The notes under the pieces are model-generated. The model was given only the letters and a program-made list of their open reading frames with translations. It had not been told where the DNA came from and did not search any database. Below are positions 48,059 through 52,593 of a stretch of 64,000 bases of DNA, piece by piece. How positions within the stretch are numbered: position 1 is the first letter of the stretch; each line of letters starts with the position of its first letter. A program made the position numbers and the translations under genes. The stretch comes from a phage: the sequence record PZ738962.1; one strand, 5' to 3'.

Positions 48059-49528
48059 CTATTCCCCATTACCATTATACTTTCTTTGCTTAGTTATCCA
48101 CACTCTAACCATCTCTACAGATTCGCCGTCAGACGGATCAAGAGTTTTTCCTTTTTTCTTCATGCGGTACTTAAATCCGTTAAATCTTGCATTCTCTTGC
48201 TCGTTAAAGTCGAACATCTTTTTAAATGATTTTCGCCCTTTACGCTCACCACATTCTAGCGGAATCATTCGGTCTGTTATTACATTGGCATTAGGCAGAA
48301 ACGTTTTTAGATAATCCACCAACGCCCAATCAGGAACATATAGATTAACATTCTCCTTGCTCTCGTTGTCTCTCAGGTTACAACGCAAACATAATTGAAA
48401 TGCTGGTTCCAGATAATCAGACACATGACGCGCTTTCAAAAACTCGTTTGTCGGGAGATCACAACTATTAGCAAGACCTTTTAAAATATCAATCTCCCAT
48501 CGTTGAGGGTTAAAGCTGAACATCACAGCAACATTTTTATGATGAATGTAAGAGTTAAGACCATAAGATCCGTAAGGTATCCGCTCACCAATACCATTTG
48601 TACACGCTTCACGGTCCCGATTCACGGTATAAATGAAGTCATCGCCACATTCATTTTTAACCATATCAACAAGACGTTCAAAGGTATTGTTTGTTTCTGA
48701 CTGGTGACGCGACCAGCGTTCGGAGTCCGTCATAAGGATGATGTTAACTCTATCTGTATTTTTATATTCTTTGAAATATAGTCTGGATTCTAGCGCACTC
48801 GGAACAAAATCGCAATTTGCATAGTATCGTAGATACTTCCCACTATATGTATCAAAGAGATTTGCACATGCTATCGTAACCTTTTTAAAGTCTCCCCACG
48901 TACCGTGTTTGTTATCGTTCAAGAAAACAATTTTCGACCCATTCTTCCGGTGTCCTTCGTTATGTTTTACCATAACGTTGATTTTCTTCTCTAATAACGC
49001 CTCATAAAGCCCTCTAAGAGAAGAATCGATCATATCAGTACCATCCTTTGCACTTTCTATCTTTTCTTTGATAGCGGCCTTCTCAGAGTCTTTTAGAACT
49101 AAGTTCTGTAGGCATTCCGATTCGTCGGCGATTGGTTCGCAATGCTTCGTGATAAGTTCAAGATTAGACTTAAACGGATACTCATTAAATTCAACCAGTT
49201 GAGGAACTTCATCAATGTAAAGAGCATATTCACCAAACATTTTTGAACGTTCCATATTAGATAACGCTGTATGTGTAATGAATATCACATCAGCACCGTC
49301 TTTAACTGATTGCATTATCGACGCTTGCACTGTCTTAAGGCTTCTTAGTCTTGTGCTATCAATCAAGACAGCACGACCGCCCATTCTTTTAAACTTATTG
49401 TAAGATTGTTCACTTAAAACACGAGATGGCGAAGCAATAACCGCTTTTTCTTTTGTCTCTAGGACGTGGGAAAGTATAGCATCAGTTTTCCCAGCCGCTG
49501 GCAATGCGATTAATGTTTCAATCTTCAT
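48059..49528 (-). CDS. uncharacterised P-loop NTPase, helicase-like N-terminal domain (489 aa)
   Basis: Walker A IALPAAGKT, motif Ia-like ASPSRVLSEQ, Walker B LYIDEVP; C-terminal 300 aa without recognised motifs. Confidence 0.6.
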   Translation of the reverse strand: MKIETLIALPAAGKTDAILSHVLETKEKAVIASPSRVLSEQSYNKFKRMGGRAVLIDSTRLRSLKTVQASIMQSVKDGADVIFITHTALSNMERSKMFGEYALYIDEVPQLVEFNEYPFKSNLELITKHCEPIADESECLQNLVLKDSEKAAIKEKIESAKDGTDMIDSSLRGLYEALLEKKINVMVKHNEGHRKNGSKIVFLNDNKHGTWGDFKKVTIACANLFDTYSGKYLRYYANCDFVPSALESRLYFKEYKNTDRVNIILMTDSERWSRHQSETNNTFERLVDMVKNECGDDFIYTVNRDREACTNGIGERIPYGSYGLNSYIHHKNVAVMFSFNPQRWEIDILKGLANSCDLPTNEFLKARHVSDYLEPAFQLCLRCNLRDNESKENVNLYVPDWALVDYLKTFLPNANVITDRMIPLECGERKGRKSFKKMFDFNEQENARFNGFKYRMKKKGKTLDPSDGESVEMVRVWITKQRKYNGNGE

Positions 49529-49815
49529 TAGAAACCCTTACGTCGTGCTTTCTGGCATTTCTTGATCATTTTATCAGAAATTTCGCGCTTAGGTGCAATC
49601 TCTTTCACACCGAAAGCACTAATGCCAAATTCAGAGAGAATATATTCAACTAACAATTCACGCACACGCGCTTTACCGATATTCACGCCGTTATTTTTCA
49701 GATATGTCTGGCCTTCGACTTGCATCAGATCTAAATCTGCGTCGGTAATATTGATTTCTTCCATGCGCCCAAATCGAGAATAAACCATGTGTGCGATTGC
49801 ATTGTGTACTAACAT
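49528..49815 (-). CDS. hypothetical protein (95 aa from ATG)
   Basis: ATG at 49815 with GAGTGAGGAATATATT upstream; track start is TTG. Confidence 0.5.
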   Translation of the reverse strand: MLVHNAIAHMVYSRFGRMEEINITDADLDLMQVEGQTYLKNNGVNIGKARVRELLVEYILSEFGISAFGVKEIAPKREISDKMIKKCQKARRKGF

Positions 49816-49836
49816 AATATATTCCTCACTCAAGAA

Positions 49837-49995
49837 TTACTTAATAATACTTACTTTACCAGATCCGTGACAATGAGCACAACACCCATCACCACGCAAT
49901 CCTGTTCCGTTACAGTGTTTACACTTCTTCAACGGTAAAGCCATTATAGCAAATAAAGCAATAATGAATACCGAAACTAAATTCTCAATAATCAT
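49837..49995 (-). CDS. small membrane-anchored protein with DnaJ-type zinc finger (52 aa)
   Basis: MIIENLVSVFIIALFAIMALPLKKCKHCNGTGLRGDGCCAHCHGSGKVSIIK: N-terminal hydrophobic helix then two CxxCxGxG motifs; GAGGG SD; below track cutoff. Confidence 0.5.
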   Translation of the reverse strand: MIIENLVSVFIIALFAIMALPLKKCKHCNGTGLRGDGCCAHCHGSGKVSIIK

Positions 49996-50254
49996 AAATC
50001 GCCCTCAGTTCTTTATAGCCTCCAATGTGCTCGTTGTCAATGAATATCTGGGGGTATACAAATCGGAGGCTCTTTGAGTTCAGCCTCCCCGCCAGTTCTT
50101 CAATCATATCACGGTCGGGAATAATGTCAACCCCGACCTGCTTGAATACTGGTTTAAGTGTATACGGAATACCCAGATCATCCAGTAGCTTCATTGCACT
50201 AATACAACCATAACAATGATAAGCCTCTTTCGGTATGCCGTATATCTCGATCAT
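49985..50254 (-). CDS. glutaredoxin/thioredoxin-like protein (NrdH/NrdC-like, CYGC active site)
   Basis: 89 aa; CxxC active site near N-terminus, C-terminal IGGYKELRAxY glutaredoxin signature. Confidence 0.75.
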   Translation of the reverse strand: MIEIYGIPKEAYHCYGCISAMKLLDDLGIPYTLKPVFKQVGVDIIPDRDMIEELAGRLNSKSLRFVYPQIFIDNEHIGGYKELRAIYDY

Positions 50255-50748
50255 TTCTCAGCCTTTAATCTTTCTAGTTCTTCTTCCAGTTCCTTGATCC
50301 GTTGGTCACGTTCAAAGTCACGCTGCAACTTAGTGGCGAATACTCGTTTAAACTGATTGTAATCATCGATTTTAAACACTTCTTCTTCGCCATAGCGACG
50401 TACAGAAACTTCGTAGTTATTGAATAATTGTTCCAACATTGCATCAGTAGTCAGTTCTGACGACACCACTTTAAAATAACGTTCTTCTGATTGCAAAAAC
50501 CAGTTGTGCGCGTATTCCCGTACATCATCAACATCTCGACAGGTGTATGTTTTTCCATCAATTTCAATCGCAGAAACATATTCGATATCTGAAGCAATTT
50601 TTTCAAAAGCGATAACTTTAAATGTACGGTCACCGATAAAGTCTGCTATTGCATCATTTGCAACACTGGTTGCAAATGCTTTCCGCGCTCGCTCGTTTTT
50701 CCACTGATAGGTCATACCAACAACAAACATATTACCATCAACAAACAT
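50251..50748 (-). CDS. paralog-family protein A1 (WKxxxAxxxF...IEIDG...ERYFKVV module)
   Basis: start at ATG 50748 with GAGGA upstream; 5' end contains an 18-bp perfect tandem duplication; shares module with 50750..59044 paralogs. Confidence 0.55.
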   Translation of the reverse strand: MFVDGNMFVVGMTYQWKNERARKAFATSVANDAIADFIGDRTFKVIAFEKIASDIEYVSAIEIDGKTYTCRDVDDVREYAHNWFLQSEERYFKVVSSELTTDAMLEQLFNNYEVSVRRYGEEEVFKIDDYNQFKRVFATKLQRDFERDQRIKELEEELERLKAEK

Positions 50749-50749
50749 A

Positions 50750-51574
50750 TTACCATCCTCGCTCTTTACCAATCAAAAATTCAACTTCACGACGTTTAAT
50801 GTCTTCTTGAAGGTCTTTAATCTTCTGGCGATCTTGCATGATTTCATCCATCTTGTCAAGTGCCGCAATGAAATCATCGAAACGTTCAAAGGTTTTACCT
50901 TCATTTGCTTCGCCAAATTTAACCATTGTCAGGCCGTAACGACTACTAAACAGACGTTTCAACTGTCCAACGATCTTAGAATCAGTGGTTATAACTTCCA
51001 ATTCTTCTACTTCACGAAAGAATTTTCTATCAGAATCAATAAACCAGCTAGTTCCTTTATGGTCTCTATCTTCGGTTGCGCTCATTAGAGTATGGTCTTT
51101 ACCATCAATTTCAATTACATCAATTTGCCCACATGGACGAACATTTTTAACAGTAAAAGGTCTATAATTTATTGCTCGTGCAATAACATAATTAAGATTA
51201 GATACGTTTTCAGCATAATGACAGAAGTCGGTCATAGCATTCGCATCTTTCCAAGTATAAGTTTTACCAACTTCCCATTTCTGGGGAACTTCTTCAACTT
51301 CACGAAAGAATTTTCGATCGAATGGACTAAAGAAATATGTTGCAGTCCAAATGTCTTTTCCTGTAGCAGTTTTCGCCGTATGATAAACACCGTCTAGCTC
51401 TATTGCATCAATCCAACCGTTATCATCGATCTCGATGATGGTAAATGGCTTGTCACCAATAGCTGCACTAATATCGCTGTTAAGTGGAGAAAGAACACCT
51501 TCTCCGTTAGTAATAAACTCAGTTTTAGCGTTTTCATCTTTCCAGGTGTAGGTTTTACCAATTTCCCATTTCAT
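50750..51574 (-). CDS. paralog-family protein A2 (two tandem copies of the module)
   Basis: 274 aa; MKWEIGKTYTWKD...FDRKFFREVEE then QKWEVGKTYTWKD...DSDRKFFREVEE; coiled-coil tail. Confidence 0.6.
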   Translation of the reverse strand: MKWEIGKTYTWKDENAKTEFITNGEGVLSPLNSDISAAIGDKPFTIIEIDDNGWIDAIELDGVYHTAKTATGKDIWTATYFFSPFDRKFFREVEEVPQKWEVGKTYTWKDANAMTDFCHYAENVSNLNYVIARAINYRPFTVKNVRPCGQIDVIEIDGKDHTLMSATEDRDHKGTSWFIDSDRKFFREVEELEVITTDSKIVGQLKRLFSSRYGLTMVKFGEANEGKTFERFDDFIAALDKMDEIMQDRQKIKDLQEDIKRREVEFLIGKERGW

Positions 51575-51586
51575 AATATATTCCCC

Positions 51587-52051
51587 TTAACCGATTTTAT
51601 CAAGTTCGTTTAATGCTTTCTCTGCTTCCTGTATAGCTTGCACCCTTTCCGGCATTTTGTCAAGAAAATCTTTCAACTCTTCAAAACTGGAGATATGACG
51701 CAATGCGTTAGCACCGATAGCCGCATGTGATTTGCATTCAAAGCGGATTTTATAATTATCCATCGCCAACTTGAGAAGATCAATTAATTTAGATTCTTCT
51801 GGAATAATAATTTCTTCAAATCTGCTACGGTCATGATCCAGAAACCAACAAGATAGACCTACATCGGTTGAACTCATATAAGTTCCATCATGAAGATAAA
51901 CAGACCGCACGTATCCTTTTTTCGCATCAACCGACGCAACTTTAAACGGTAATCGCAGATATTTCAAATAATCAACATCATACCATTTAAAAAATTGGTT
52001 TGCATCTTTTACATCTTTCCACGCATAGGTCTTACCAGCTTCCCATTTCAT
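51587..52051 (-). CDS. paralog-family protein A3
   Basis: start set to ATG 52051 (MKWEAGKTYAWKD) by paralog alignment; track ORF starts 5 codons upstream. Confidence 0.55.
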   Translation of the reverse strand: MKWEAGKTYAWKDVKDANQFFKWYDVDYLKYLRLPFKVASVDAKKGYVRSVYLHDGTYMSSTDVGLSCWFLDHDRSRFEEIIIPEESKLIDLLKLAMDNYKIRFECKSHAAIGANALRHISSFEELKDFLDKMPERVQAIQEAEKALNELDKIG

Positions 52052-52055
52052 AATA

Positions 52056-52583
52056 TCATCTCTCATTTTTGATACGTGATTCTAATTGGATCATACGGTC
52101 GCGCGTTTGTTTGTATTCTCGGATAGCACCGATCCGGCTAGGCATACCATCCAGTACGCTCTTAATACCTTCTAGGGTAGTGATTTTAGCAATGCTATTA
52201 TGCAACCCCATCTTATCGATCAACTGAATGTCGTAGGCTTCCATAAGCAGACCCAGACGTTCTAAAGTTAGGTCTTCTTCTTTTTCTTCAGAATCTGGAA
52301 TCTTAGGTTCAATAATAACTTCGGTAAAGAAACGACGCTCACCCGACCAAAACCACACACCGGAACAGCCAATAGGGGATTCTTTTAACGTCATAGAGTC
52401 GAAATCACTACCAATAATAGTAATTTCTCTAACATCACCATCATCGTCAAGGTCTTCTACCCTAAACGGGCGACCAGCCAACAAGTCAACAATACATCTG
52501 TTAATAGACGACGAAAATTTAGTCAGTTCGGCTTTCGACGCTTCGCATTCAATCTTGTAAGTTTTACCAACTTCCCATTCCAT
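52056..52583 (-). CDS. paralog-family protein A4
   Basis: start at ATG 52583 (MEWEVGKTYKIE) with TTGAGGTG upstream; ERRFFTEV motif. Confidence 0.55.
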   Translation of the reverse strand: MEWEVGKTYKIECEASKAELTKFSSSINRCIVDLLAGRPFRVEDLDDDGDVREITIIGSDFDSMTLKESPIGCSGVWFWSGERRFFTEVIIEPKIPDSEEKEEDLTLERLGLLMEAYDIQLIDKMGLHNSIAKITTLEGIKSVLDGMPSRIGAIREYKQTRDRMIQLESRIKNER

Positions 52584-52593
52584 AATAATCACC

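Follow-up and report, generated by a model that had tools for sequence, protein, structure and literature searches.

RB49p046 of Krischvirus coliphages: a conserved 52-residue phage protein predicted to hold a single zinc knuckle at the inner membrane

The gene at its locus

The 64,000-nucleotide stretch of phage sequence record PZ738962.1 (here called the window) comes from a Krischvirus, an RB49-like coliphage, and the element analyzed here is a 52-codon open reading frame (ORF) on its minus strand, situated between a glutaredoxin gene (nrdH) and a gp55.2 homologue. The translated product of 49837..49995, MIIENLVSVFIIALFAIMALPLKKCKHCNGTGLRGDGCCAHCHGSGKVSIIK, has a hydrophobic N-terminal segment followed by a short tail with two CxxCxGxG motifs. 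A first-pass annotation made from the nucleotide sequence had listed the ORF as unannotated, but it had been missed only by an ORF-length cutoff. The gene has been known as an annotated hypothetical coding sequence (CDS) since the RB49 genome, in which it is RB49p046 (NP_891617.1, "hypothetical protein") and is flanked by nrdH (RB49p047) and the gp55.2 homologue (RB49p045). It is called as a CDS in RB49 and in about 58 other Krischvirus records, under the label "putative membrane protein" in Ec_Makalu_001 and elsewhere also as "hypothetical protein"; record E26 carries no feature at the 52-codon ORF. The elements of the gene are as follows.

49837..49995, minus strand: CDS of 52 amino acids with a putative zinc knuckle (RB49p046 orthologue; phrog_3931), ATG at 49995..49993 and TAA at 49839..49837
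49930..49980, minus strand: hydrophobic, putative transmembrane segment LVSVFIIALFAIMALPL (codons 6 to 22), identified by hydropathy
49900..49923, minus strand: motif 1, CKHCNGTG (residues 25 to 32), identified in the sequence
49858..49881, minus strand: motif 2, CAHCHGSG (residues 39 to 46), identified in the sequence
50002..50006, minus strand: GAGGG, Shine-Dalgarno-like, 6 nucleotides before the ATG and within the 3' end of nrdH
49985..49995, minus strand: 11-nucleotide overlap between the end of nrdH and the start of the 52-codon ORF (ATGATTATTGA)

The GAGGG ribosome-binding site reported in the first-pass annotation can be read directly at 50006..50002, 6 nucleotides upstream of the ATG, and the coding strand ahead of the ORF is ...ACTGAGGGCGATTTATGATTATTGAGAAT. 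The nrdH stop codon, TGA at 49987..49985, falls inside the first 11 nucleotides of the ORF, a geometry that is consistent with translational coupling and is likewise present in the comparison loci L038, L040, and L041. The next gene begins 21 bases past the TAA and has its own GAGGA site; because of the overlap upstream and this short gap downstream, the gene is part of a tightly packed minus-strand operon. On the plus strand, only trivial ORFs of 27 and 37 amino acids cover the region. CKHCNGTG and CAHCHGSG are the only intact CxxCxGxG motifs in the six-frame translation of the window, for which 0.26 would be expected from mononucleotide shuffles. All sequence details given in the first-pass annotation were thus borne out. 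A further cysteine just before motif 2 (Cys38, giving "CC") is extra and is not kept across the family described below.

Conservation and family

The first-pass annotation had proposed conservation of the ORF and of its cysteine pattern in related phages as a check, and both proved to be conserved. The ORF was found in 59 of 59 Krischvirus records, and the Cys and Gly positions within the motifs are invariant. Among the 30 records listed, identity over the surrounding 1-kb region is 98.8 to 99.6%, and it is no lower than 95% in any of the 59 Krischvirus genomes that were found, RB49, JSE, Phi1, and GEC-3S among them. More informative are the diverged alleles in Krischvirus-like metagenomic contigs with identical synteny, whose products share 87% (P0003, counted over aligned positions), 77% (P0019), and 50% (P0024) amino acid identity with the 52-residue protein; P0069 and P0084 are more distant Krischvirus-like relatives. 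In codon-level comparisons, 14 synonymous and 9 nonsynonymous differences separate the ORF from its counterpart in L038 (ratio of nonsynonymous to synonymous substitution rates [dN/dS], 0.13), 13 and 14 from that in L041 (dN/dS, 0.22), and 16 and 36 from that in L040 (dN/dS, 0.51; dN, 0.375; dS, 0.74). These ratios indicate that the ORF is subject to purifying selection. Three distinct in-frame indels of 3 codons each (L038, L040, and L041) all lie in or beside the hydrophobic segment. The protein also matched the phrog_3931 hidden Markov model (HMM) (E = 4.3e-10, 40.5 bits), with residues 7 to 48 aligned to profile positions 15 to 56 of 59.

The difference from L040 forms a sharply bounded island. 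In a 30-nucleotide sliding comparison, nucleotide identity is 60 to 73% exactly over the ORF (L040 4001..4177), whereas it is 100% in the 21-nucleotide spacer and 97 to 100% in the last 60 nucleotides of nrdH before the overlap. At the protein level, the putative zinc-knuckle protein is 50% identical to that of L040, compared with 94% for NrdH, 99% for the 55.2 protein, 100% for the 489-residue protein encoded downstream, and 99% for gp55. In L038, the changes gather in the anchor-encoding half of the gene. The elevated dS favours an older allele acquired by exchange over a simple local burst of mutation. The island is compatible with two readings: replacement of the allele together with diversification of a surface used for binding, or constraint that is weak everywhere but at the zinc ligands.

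The same architecture of an anchor and two motifs was found in two phage groups only, Krischvirus-like and Ounavirinae-like. Searches with tblastn and with a profile identified as Ounavirinae-like members FelixO1 ORF131 (NP_945023.1; 58 amino acids; "hypothetical membrane protein"), a 54-amino-acid protein of an Erwinia Kolesnikvirus, a protein of Mooglevirus Silverhawkium ("membrane protein"), and proteins of Yersinia phage P778, Pectobacterium phage Arno162, and several metagenomic clusters. The alignment with the 52-residue protein runs end to end for FelixO1 ORF131, the Kolesnikvirus protein, and 13 metagenomic clusters. In total, there are at least 16 diverged members of 49 to 60 amino acids, every one of which has a predicted transmembrane segment and two CxxCxGxG motifs. 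In an alignment of 16 sequences (24 to 87% identity), the only invariant columns are C25, C28, G30, G32, C39, C42, G44, and G46; all 16 have the N-terminal hydrophobic stretch, and the spacer between the motifs is 5 to 7 residues long. The actual family is that of phrog_3931, FelixO1 ORF131, and RB49p046, with proteins of 52 to 60 amino acids in virulent myoviruses of Enterobacterales, from which the protein of the window differs in no way in kind.

Database labels for the family include "hypothetical," "membrane protein," and, claiming too much, "DnaJ chaperone." The 54-amino-acid homologue of Erwinia phage Rouille (L004 2971..3135), like those of Tian and Pistou, is labeled "dnaJ / chaperone protein DnaJ," which is a motif-only over-annotation: the homologue has two motifs and no J domain. 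Some Felix-like records (P0007, P0009, P0010, and P0011; for example, phiWec177) contain 63-amino-acid variants with a frameshift after the anchor and loss of one or both zinc motifs. These are either naturally inactivated copies or sequencing errors, and each is a single-member cluster.

ORFs with two CxxCxGxG motifs are common in phage genomes, and several candidates were rejected as family members. P0105 has 52 amino acids and the same motifs, but it starts with a positively charged signal peptide, and its contig carries helix-turn-helix and peptidase S9 genes. In the scan of viral contigs, L011, L015, L016, L026, L033, and L036 were motif-only matches. The L007 protein, from a 152-kb AT-rich viral contig (3977..4285), is soluble and 102 amino acids long and has four motifs of the CxxCxGxG type, three of them strict and the fourth being CSKCNNHG; its gene lies between an RFC/clamp-loader-like gene and a 324-amino-acid gene, that is, in a replication module with a different use of the motif. 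The metagenomic bacterial proteins P0035, P0023, and P0093 have a signal peptide followed by three tandem two-motif units ("AVKCIWCHGTG..KPCxSCNGTGTRWE") and look like exported arrays of the same knuckle.

Predicted topology and zinc knuckle

The N-terminal hydrophobic helix proposed in the first-pass annotation was recovered at residues 6 to 22, the best transmembrane window (Kyte-Doolittle mean, 2.8; summed Hessa free energy, -2.0 kcal/mol without position terms). AlphaFold2 predicted a helix at residues 3 to 19, the only one in the model. None of 21 members has Lys or Arg in the N-terminal flank, where an acidic residue is often present (MIIE-, MQGYWLE-, MDVH-). Lys and Arg are found instead between the helix and motif 1 and, in many members, directly after the helix (-PLKK-, -LLCKY-, -AAKYR-). 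Under the positive-inside rule, this distribution of charges suggests an anchor with an N-out/C-in orientation, in which the Cys-rich tail would be on the cytoplasmic face. A cytoplasmic tail would be in a reducing environment, and zinc binding would be expected there. The evidently exported bacterial CxxCxGxG proteins P0105, P0114, and P0035 are patterned the other way round and begin with signal peptides of the MRRR- or MKK- kind.

A profile of five members was compared with solved structures, and AlphaFold2 was run on a five-sequence alignment. By sequence, the best match was the cysteine-rich domain of Escherichia coli DnaJ (1EXK; E = 1.1e-8), to which the profile aligned over motifs 1 and 2 or motifs 3 and 4, and Anti-TRAP (3lcz) followed at an E value of 0.26. 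This profile match supports the reading of the two motifs as DnaJ-type in the first-pass annotation. By structure, the best Foldseek matches of the model were Anti-TRAP entries 3ld0 and 2bx9 (root mean square deviation of 0.6 to 0.7 Å over 23 to 24 residues; probabilities of 0.96 and 0.51), followed by DnaJ (1exk) and lambda Q. The spacing of the tail, C-x2-C-x-G-x-G-x6-C-x2-C-x-G-x-G, is exactly that of Anti-TRAP. Two motifs allow one zinc centre at most, compared with four motifs and two centres in DnaJ, and from homology to Anti-TRAP and the DnaJ cysteine-rich domain we infer one Zn(Cys)4 site in a single knuckle made of two beta-hairpins.

Curated families gave only motif-level matches below their cutoffs in Pfam, NCBIfam, and PADLOC scans that took in the 52-residue protein and four homologues: (i) Pfam DnaJ_CXXCXGXG (PF00684) scored 14.6 bits versus a gathering threshold of 32.7 and covered only profile positions 1 to 28 of 65; (ii) Pfam GRXCR1-2_C (PF23733) scored 17.6 bits versus 26 (E = 0.0036), in a 12-residue match over one motif; (iii) NCBIfam RtpA (NF058604) scored 12.8 bits versus a cutoff of 65; and (iv) Pfam Anti-TRAP (PF15777) matched one of the five members, at an E value of 0.91. 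PADLOC returned nothing relevant. A J domain was matched in neither Pfam nor NCBIfam, and 22 of the 52 residues make up the anchor.

Three known systems invite comparison. DnaJ has four motifs interlaced into two zinc centres, together with a J domain and substrate-binding domains. The phage protein shares with its cysteine-rich domain the CxxCxGxG motif and the G-x-G-K/R-V continuation, along with the sequence match described above. It differs in having two motifs, one possible centre, a membrane anchor, and no J domain. The Anti-TRAP protein of Bacillus (RtpA; 2bx9 and 3ld0/3lcz; PF15777) has 53 residues, and its two CXXCXGXG motifs bind one functionally essential zinc; it binds and blocks TRAP, as a stoichiometric inhibitor (PMC2896485). 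The phage protein is similar to it in size and in its two motifs and 6-residue spacer, and Anti-TRAP is the best structural match to its predicted knuckle. However, Anti-TRAP is soluble, acts in trp regulation, which is an unrelated context, and assembles into trimers and dodecamers through a C-terminal helix, whereas the phage protein has an N-terminal transmembrane helix, ends 6 residues after motif 2, and has no trimerization helix. The third system, FIP of Arabidopsis (At5g02160), has a membrane anchor and a C4 zinc finger with two CXXCXGXG motifs, faces the stroma, and binds FtsH5 (PMC5915565). Compared by description only, it resembles the phage protein in its anchor, its C-terminal two-motif finger, and the lack of a J domain, and its stromal finger corresponds to the cytoplasmic placement predicted for the phage tail; it is longer, eukaryotic, targeted to the chloroplast, and confined to land plants.

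The phage protein is predicted to be like Anti-TRAP in fold yet is a member of neither the Anti-TRAP nor the DnaJ family, since four motifs, a J domain, and a trimerization helix were looked for and are lacking and its scores against the HMMs of both families fall below the cutoffs. A characterized phage or bacterial membrane-anchored DnaJ-type zinc finger was not found in the literature searched, which mentioned the motif only for HMO-2011-type DNA polymerases, a Q-like protein from phage Loki, Anti-TRAP, and proteins of plants.

Genomic context and possible function

The features surrounding the gene in the window are as follows.

49985..50254, minus strand: NrdH-like glutaredoxin of 89 amino acids, the upstream neighbour (Pfam Glutaredoxin, 23.4 bits versus a cutoff of 22.9; nrdH in RB49)
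49528..49815, minus strand: gp55.2 homologue (DUF7570) of 95 amino acids, the downstream neighbour (Pfam DUF7570, E = 1.4e-28; RB49p045)
50103..50130, minus strand: promoter-like site of the sigma-70 type, TTGACA-16-TATGAT with an extended -10 TG (11/12), a consensus match only

The first-pass annotation had placed the ORF between a glutaredoxin-like gene and a P-loop NTPase gene. The glutaredoxin gene is indeed its upstream neighbour, but the P-loop NTPase gene does not adjoin it, as the 95-amino-acid gp55.2 homologue lies between them. In Krischvirus-like loci, the gene order is nrdG, four paralogous ORFs, nrdH, the putative zinc-knuckle gene, 55.2, a 489-amino-acid DEAD-like gene, and the gene for the late sigma factor gp55; this order and the overlap with nrdH are kept in every such locus examined, distant ones included. 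The gene lies in an operon position among early-type genes. The sigma-70-like site sits within nrdH, about 100 nucleotides upstream of the gene, in a stretch that is 100% identical in L040 and L041, and could be an internal early promoter for the putative zinc-knuckle gene, 55.2, the 489-amino-acid gene, and gp55. In T4, the interval between nrdH and 55.2 holds 55.3 to 55.6, none of which is Cys-rich, and no counterpart of the gene was found there, which leaves no genetic work in T4 to draw on.

In Ounavirinae-like phages, the gene closes a prs-HNH-nadV block and immediately precedes rIIA-rIIB. What separates it from nadV varies: phrog_4262 in FelixO1, phrog_27920 in Kolesnikvirus, and no gene in Arno162. 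In diverged metagenomic contigs, rIIA begins 20 nucleotides downstream (L048) or follows an inserted HNH gene (L049). Linkage to rIIA as a general feature was rejected: in RB49 and T4, the ORFs that precede rIIA encode unrelated soluble proteins, and the linkage is lineage specific. Neither a glutaredoxin nor a P-loop NTPase gene was found next to the gene in the Ounavirinae-like loci examined. No neighbour is common to the two lineages.

We tentatively favour, at a level just short of calling it probable, a nonenzymatic binder that acts stoichiometrically at the cytoplasmic face of the inner membrane and, early in infection, blocks or diverts a partner associated with that membrane. The N-terminal helix of about 17 residues would insert with an N-out/C-in orientation, leaving a 30-residue tail in the cytoplasm, where it would fold into a single knuckle around one Zn2+ bound by the four motif cysteines. 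In this way, a small binding surface that evolves quickly would be kept close against the inner side of the membrane. The knuckle would then bind and probably inhibit or re-route its partner, as Anti-TRAP neutralizes TRAP. The protein has no catalytic equipment. Host FtsH is a candidate partner by analogy, given the architecture of FIP and its binding to FtsH5, and given that DnaJ-like zinc-finger subunits scaffold membrane AAA+ complexes, as Moc50 does in Orf2971-FtsHi (bioRxiv 10.1101/2024.09.02.610899). The RII membrane system, or whatever RII counteracts, may be a second candidate, since in Ounavirinae rIIA/rIIB immediately follow the gene. Its absence from T4 and the frameshifts in some Felix-like records suggest that the gene is accessory and dispensable rather than essential.

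Several points weigh against this interpretation. The AlphaFold2 model is of moderate quality (mean predicted local distance difference test [pLDDT] score of 71, about 82 over residues 31 to 40) and was built from five sequences. The Foldseek E values, 0.22 to 1.8, are all nonsignificant, a consequence of the very small size of the domain. For some Ounavirinae members (P0025, P0029, and P0072), whose C-terminal flank is acidic on balance, the topology prediction is weaker. Fast divergence can equally mean weak constraint on the anchor and loop, and dN/dS stays below 1. The frameshifted copies, as single-member clusters, may be sequencing errors. The FtsH idea is an architectural analogy with the plant protein by description, no computation in the analysis pointed to a partner, and no experiments on any family member were found in the literature. 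A narrower version of the binder, in which a hypervariable tethered knuckle disables a host inner-membrane machine (FtsH or an abortive-infection system countered by RII) and the divergence island is the trace of an arms race, seems unlikely as it stands.

The best-surviving alternative, though a doubtful one, is a membrane-tethered holdase or assembly factor whose knuckle, in the manner of the zinc-finger domains of DnaJ and of plant DnaJ-like proteins, binds unfolded or nascent polypeptides at the membrane and aids the insertion or assembly of a phage or host membrane complex while inhibiting nothing. The closest sequence similarity is after all to the DnaJ cysteine-rich domain, NCBIfam DnaJ models match with E values of about 1e-3 to 1e-5, and Moc50 is a precedent for a scaffolding finger subunit. 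Some database records name homologues "chaperone protein," but these labels are automatic, motif-based transfers. The chaperone-like role suggested in the first-pass annotation sits poorly with a single zinc centre of about 25 residues and neither a J domain nor any further domain; moreover, the surface residues vary even among close relatives, which is unexpected for a general substrate-binding surface.

We consider it improbable that the protein has the opposite topology, that is, that the helix is a signal-anchor and the tail a periplasmic, disulfide-knotted peptide that is oxidized by DsbA and has the envelope as its target, where it might serve superinfection exclusion or, alongside RII-type functions, the timing of lysis. 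Such a role would suit a small membrane protein made early, whose gene in Ounavirinae neighbours the "lysis inhibitor" pair rIIA/rIIB, the acidic C-terminal flank of some members would permit it, and exported bacterial proteins with the same motif are known (P0035, P0105, and P0114). The charge pattern points the other way, however, with a positively charged N-terminal region in no member, an acidic one in many, and Lys or Arg just past the helix, and the strictly kept CxxCxGxG geometry is a zinc site in all solved relatives.

Slightly less credible still is a thiol-redox partner of NrdH, in which the CxxC pairs would cycle between a dithiol or zinc-bound state and a disulfide, as a membrane redox coupling or a redox switch. 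The 11-nucleotide overlap and the constant nrdH-first order in Krischvirus-like loci speak for it, as do the weak match to the C-terminal domain of GRXCR1/2 (E = 0.0036) and the fusion of glutaredoxin with such a finger domain in vertebrate GRXCR1/2. Some plant DnaJ-like zinc-finger proteins are reported to have oxidizing or isomerase activity (ZnJ6; PMC7865324). The Pfam match, however, spans 12 residues and falls below the gathering score, and the protein does not covary with NrdH (50% versus 94% identity in L040). The Ounavirinae-like homologues have a variable upstream gene, rIIA downstream, and no glutaredoxin or P-loop NTPase alongside. With no neighbour shared by the two lineages, the idea of a redox partner draws on Krischvirus synteny alone, and the partnership with neighbouring genes envisaged in the first-pass annotation found no support outside that lineage.

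A functionless ORF, arisen by chance in intergenic or overlapping sequence and picked up by annotation pipelines, for which one could cite its very short length, the lack of any curated family at threshold, and the lack of expression evidence, is excluded for practical purposes and effectively refuted by the conservation pattern: two CxxCxGxG motifs lie at a distance of 14 residues, against an expectation of 0.26 per 64 kb, synonymous changes are in excess, the indels keep the frame, Cys and Gly are constant across homologues of 24 to 87% identity from two phage groups, and the ORF has a good ribosome-binding site in a tightly packed operon.

As it stands, this is an annotated hypothetical protein with a common motif, which would hardly surprise a specialist. 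If the proposed binder mechanism is true, the protein would be a minimal phage effector of about 50 residues, made of an anchor and one knuckle with a freely swappable surface, and it would carry the Anti-TRAP/DnaJ-type knuckle beyond soluble regulators and chaperones into phage proteins tethered to a membrane. The family is small and easily synthesized and occurs in well-studied coliphages (RB49 and FelixO1), and it thus offers a tractable case for the function of small phage proteins.

Some further observations concern the neighbouring genes. The mechanical ORF list begins the gp55.2 homologue at a TTG (49528..49833; 101 amino acids); the ATG at 49815 behind the GAGGA site, which gives the 95 amino acids annotated in RB49, is the more likely start. 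The 489-amino-acid DEAD/P-loop-like gene (phrog_2467; 48059..49528, minus strand) encodes a product that is 100% identical in L040 but only 68 to 70% identical in L038, L041, and L042, whereas the flanking 55.2 and gp55 remain 96 to 99% identical in Krischvirus-like contigs; this dimorphism suggests allelic replacement or mosaicism. Finally, the four tandem paralogous ORFs between nrdG and nrdH (50251..52592, minus strand) each open with a "KWE(I/V/A)GKTYxWKD" module, which occurs twice in the 274-amino-acid paralogue; they match phrog_5347 and related families and have a weak match to the goF mRNA-metabolism modulator.

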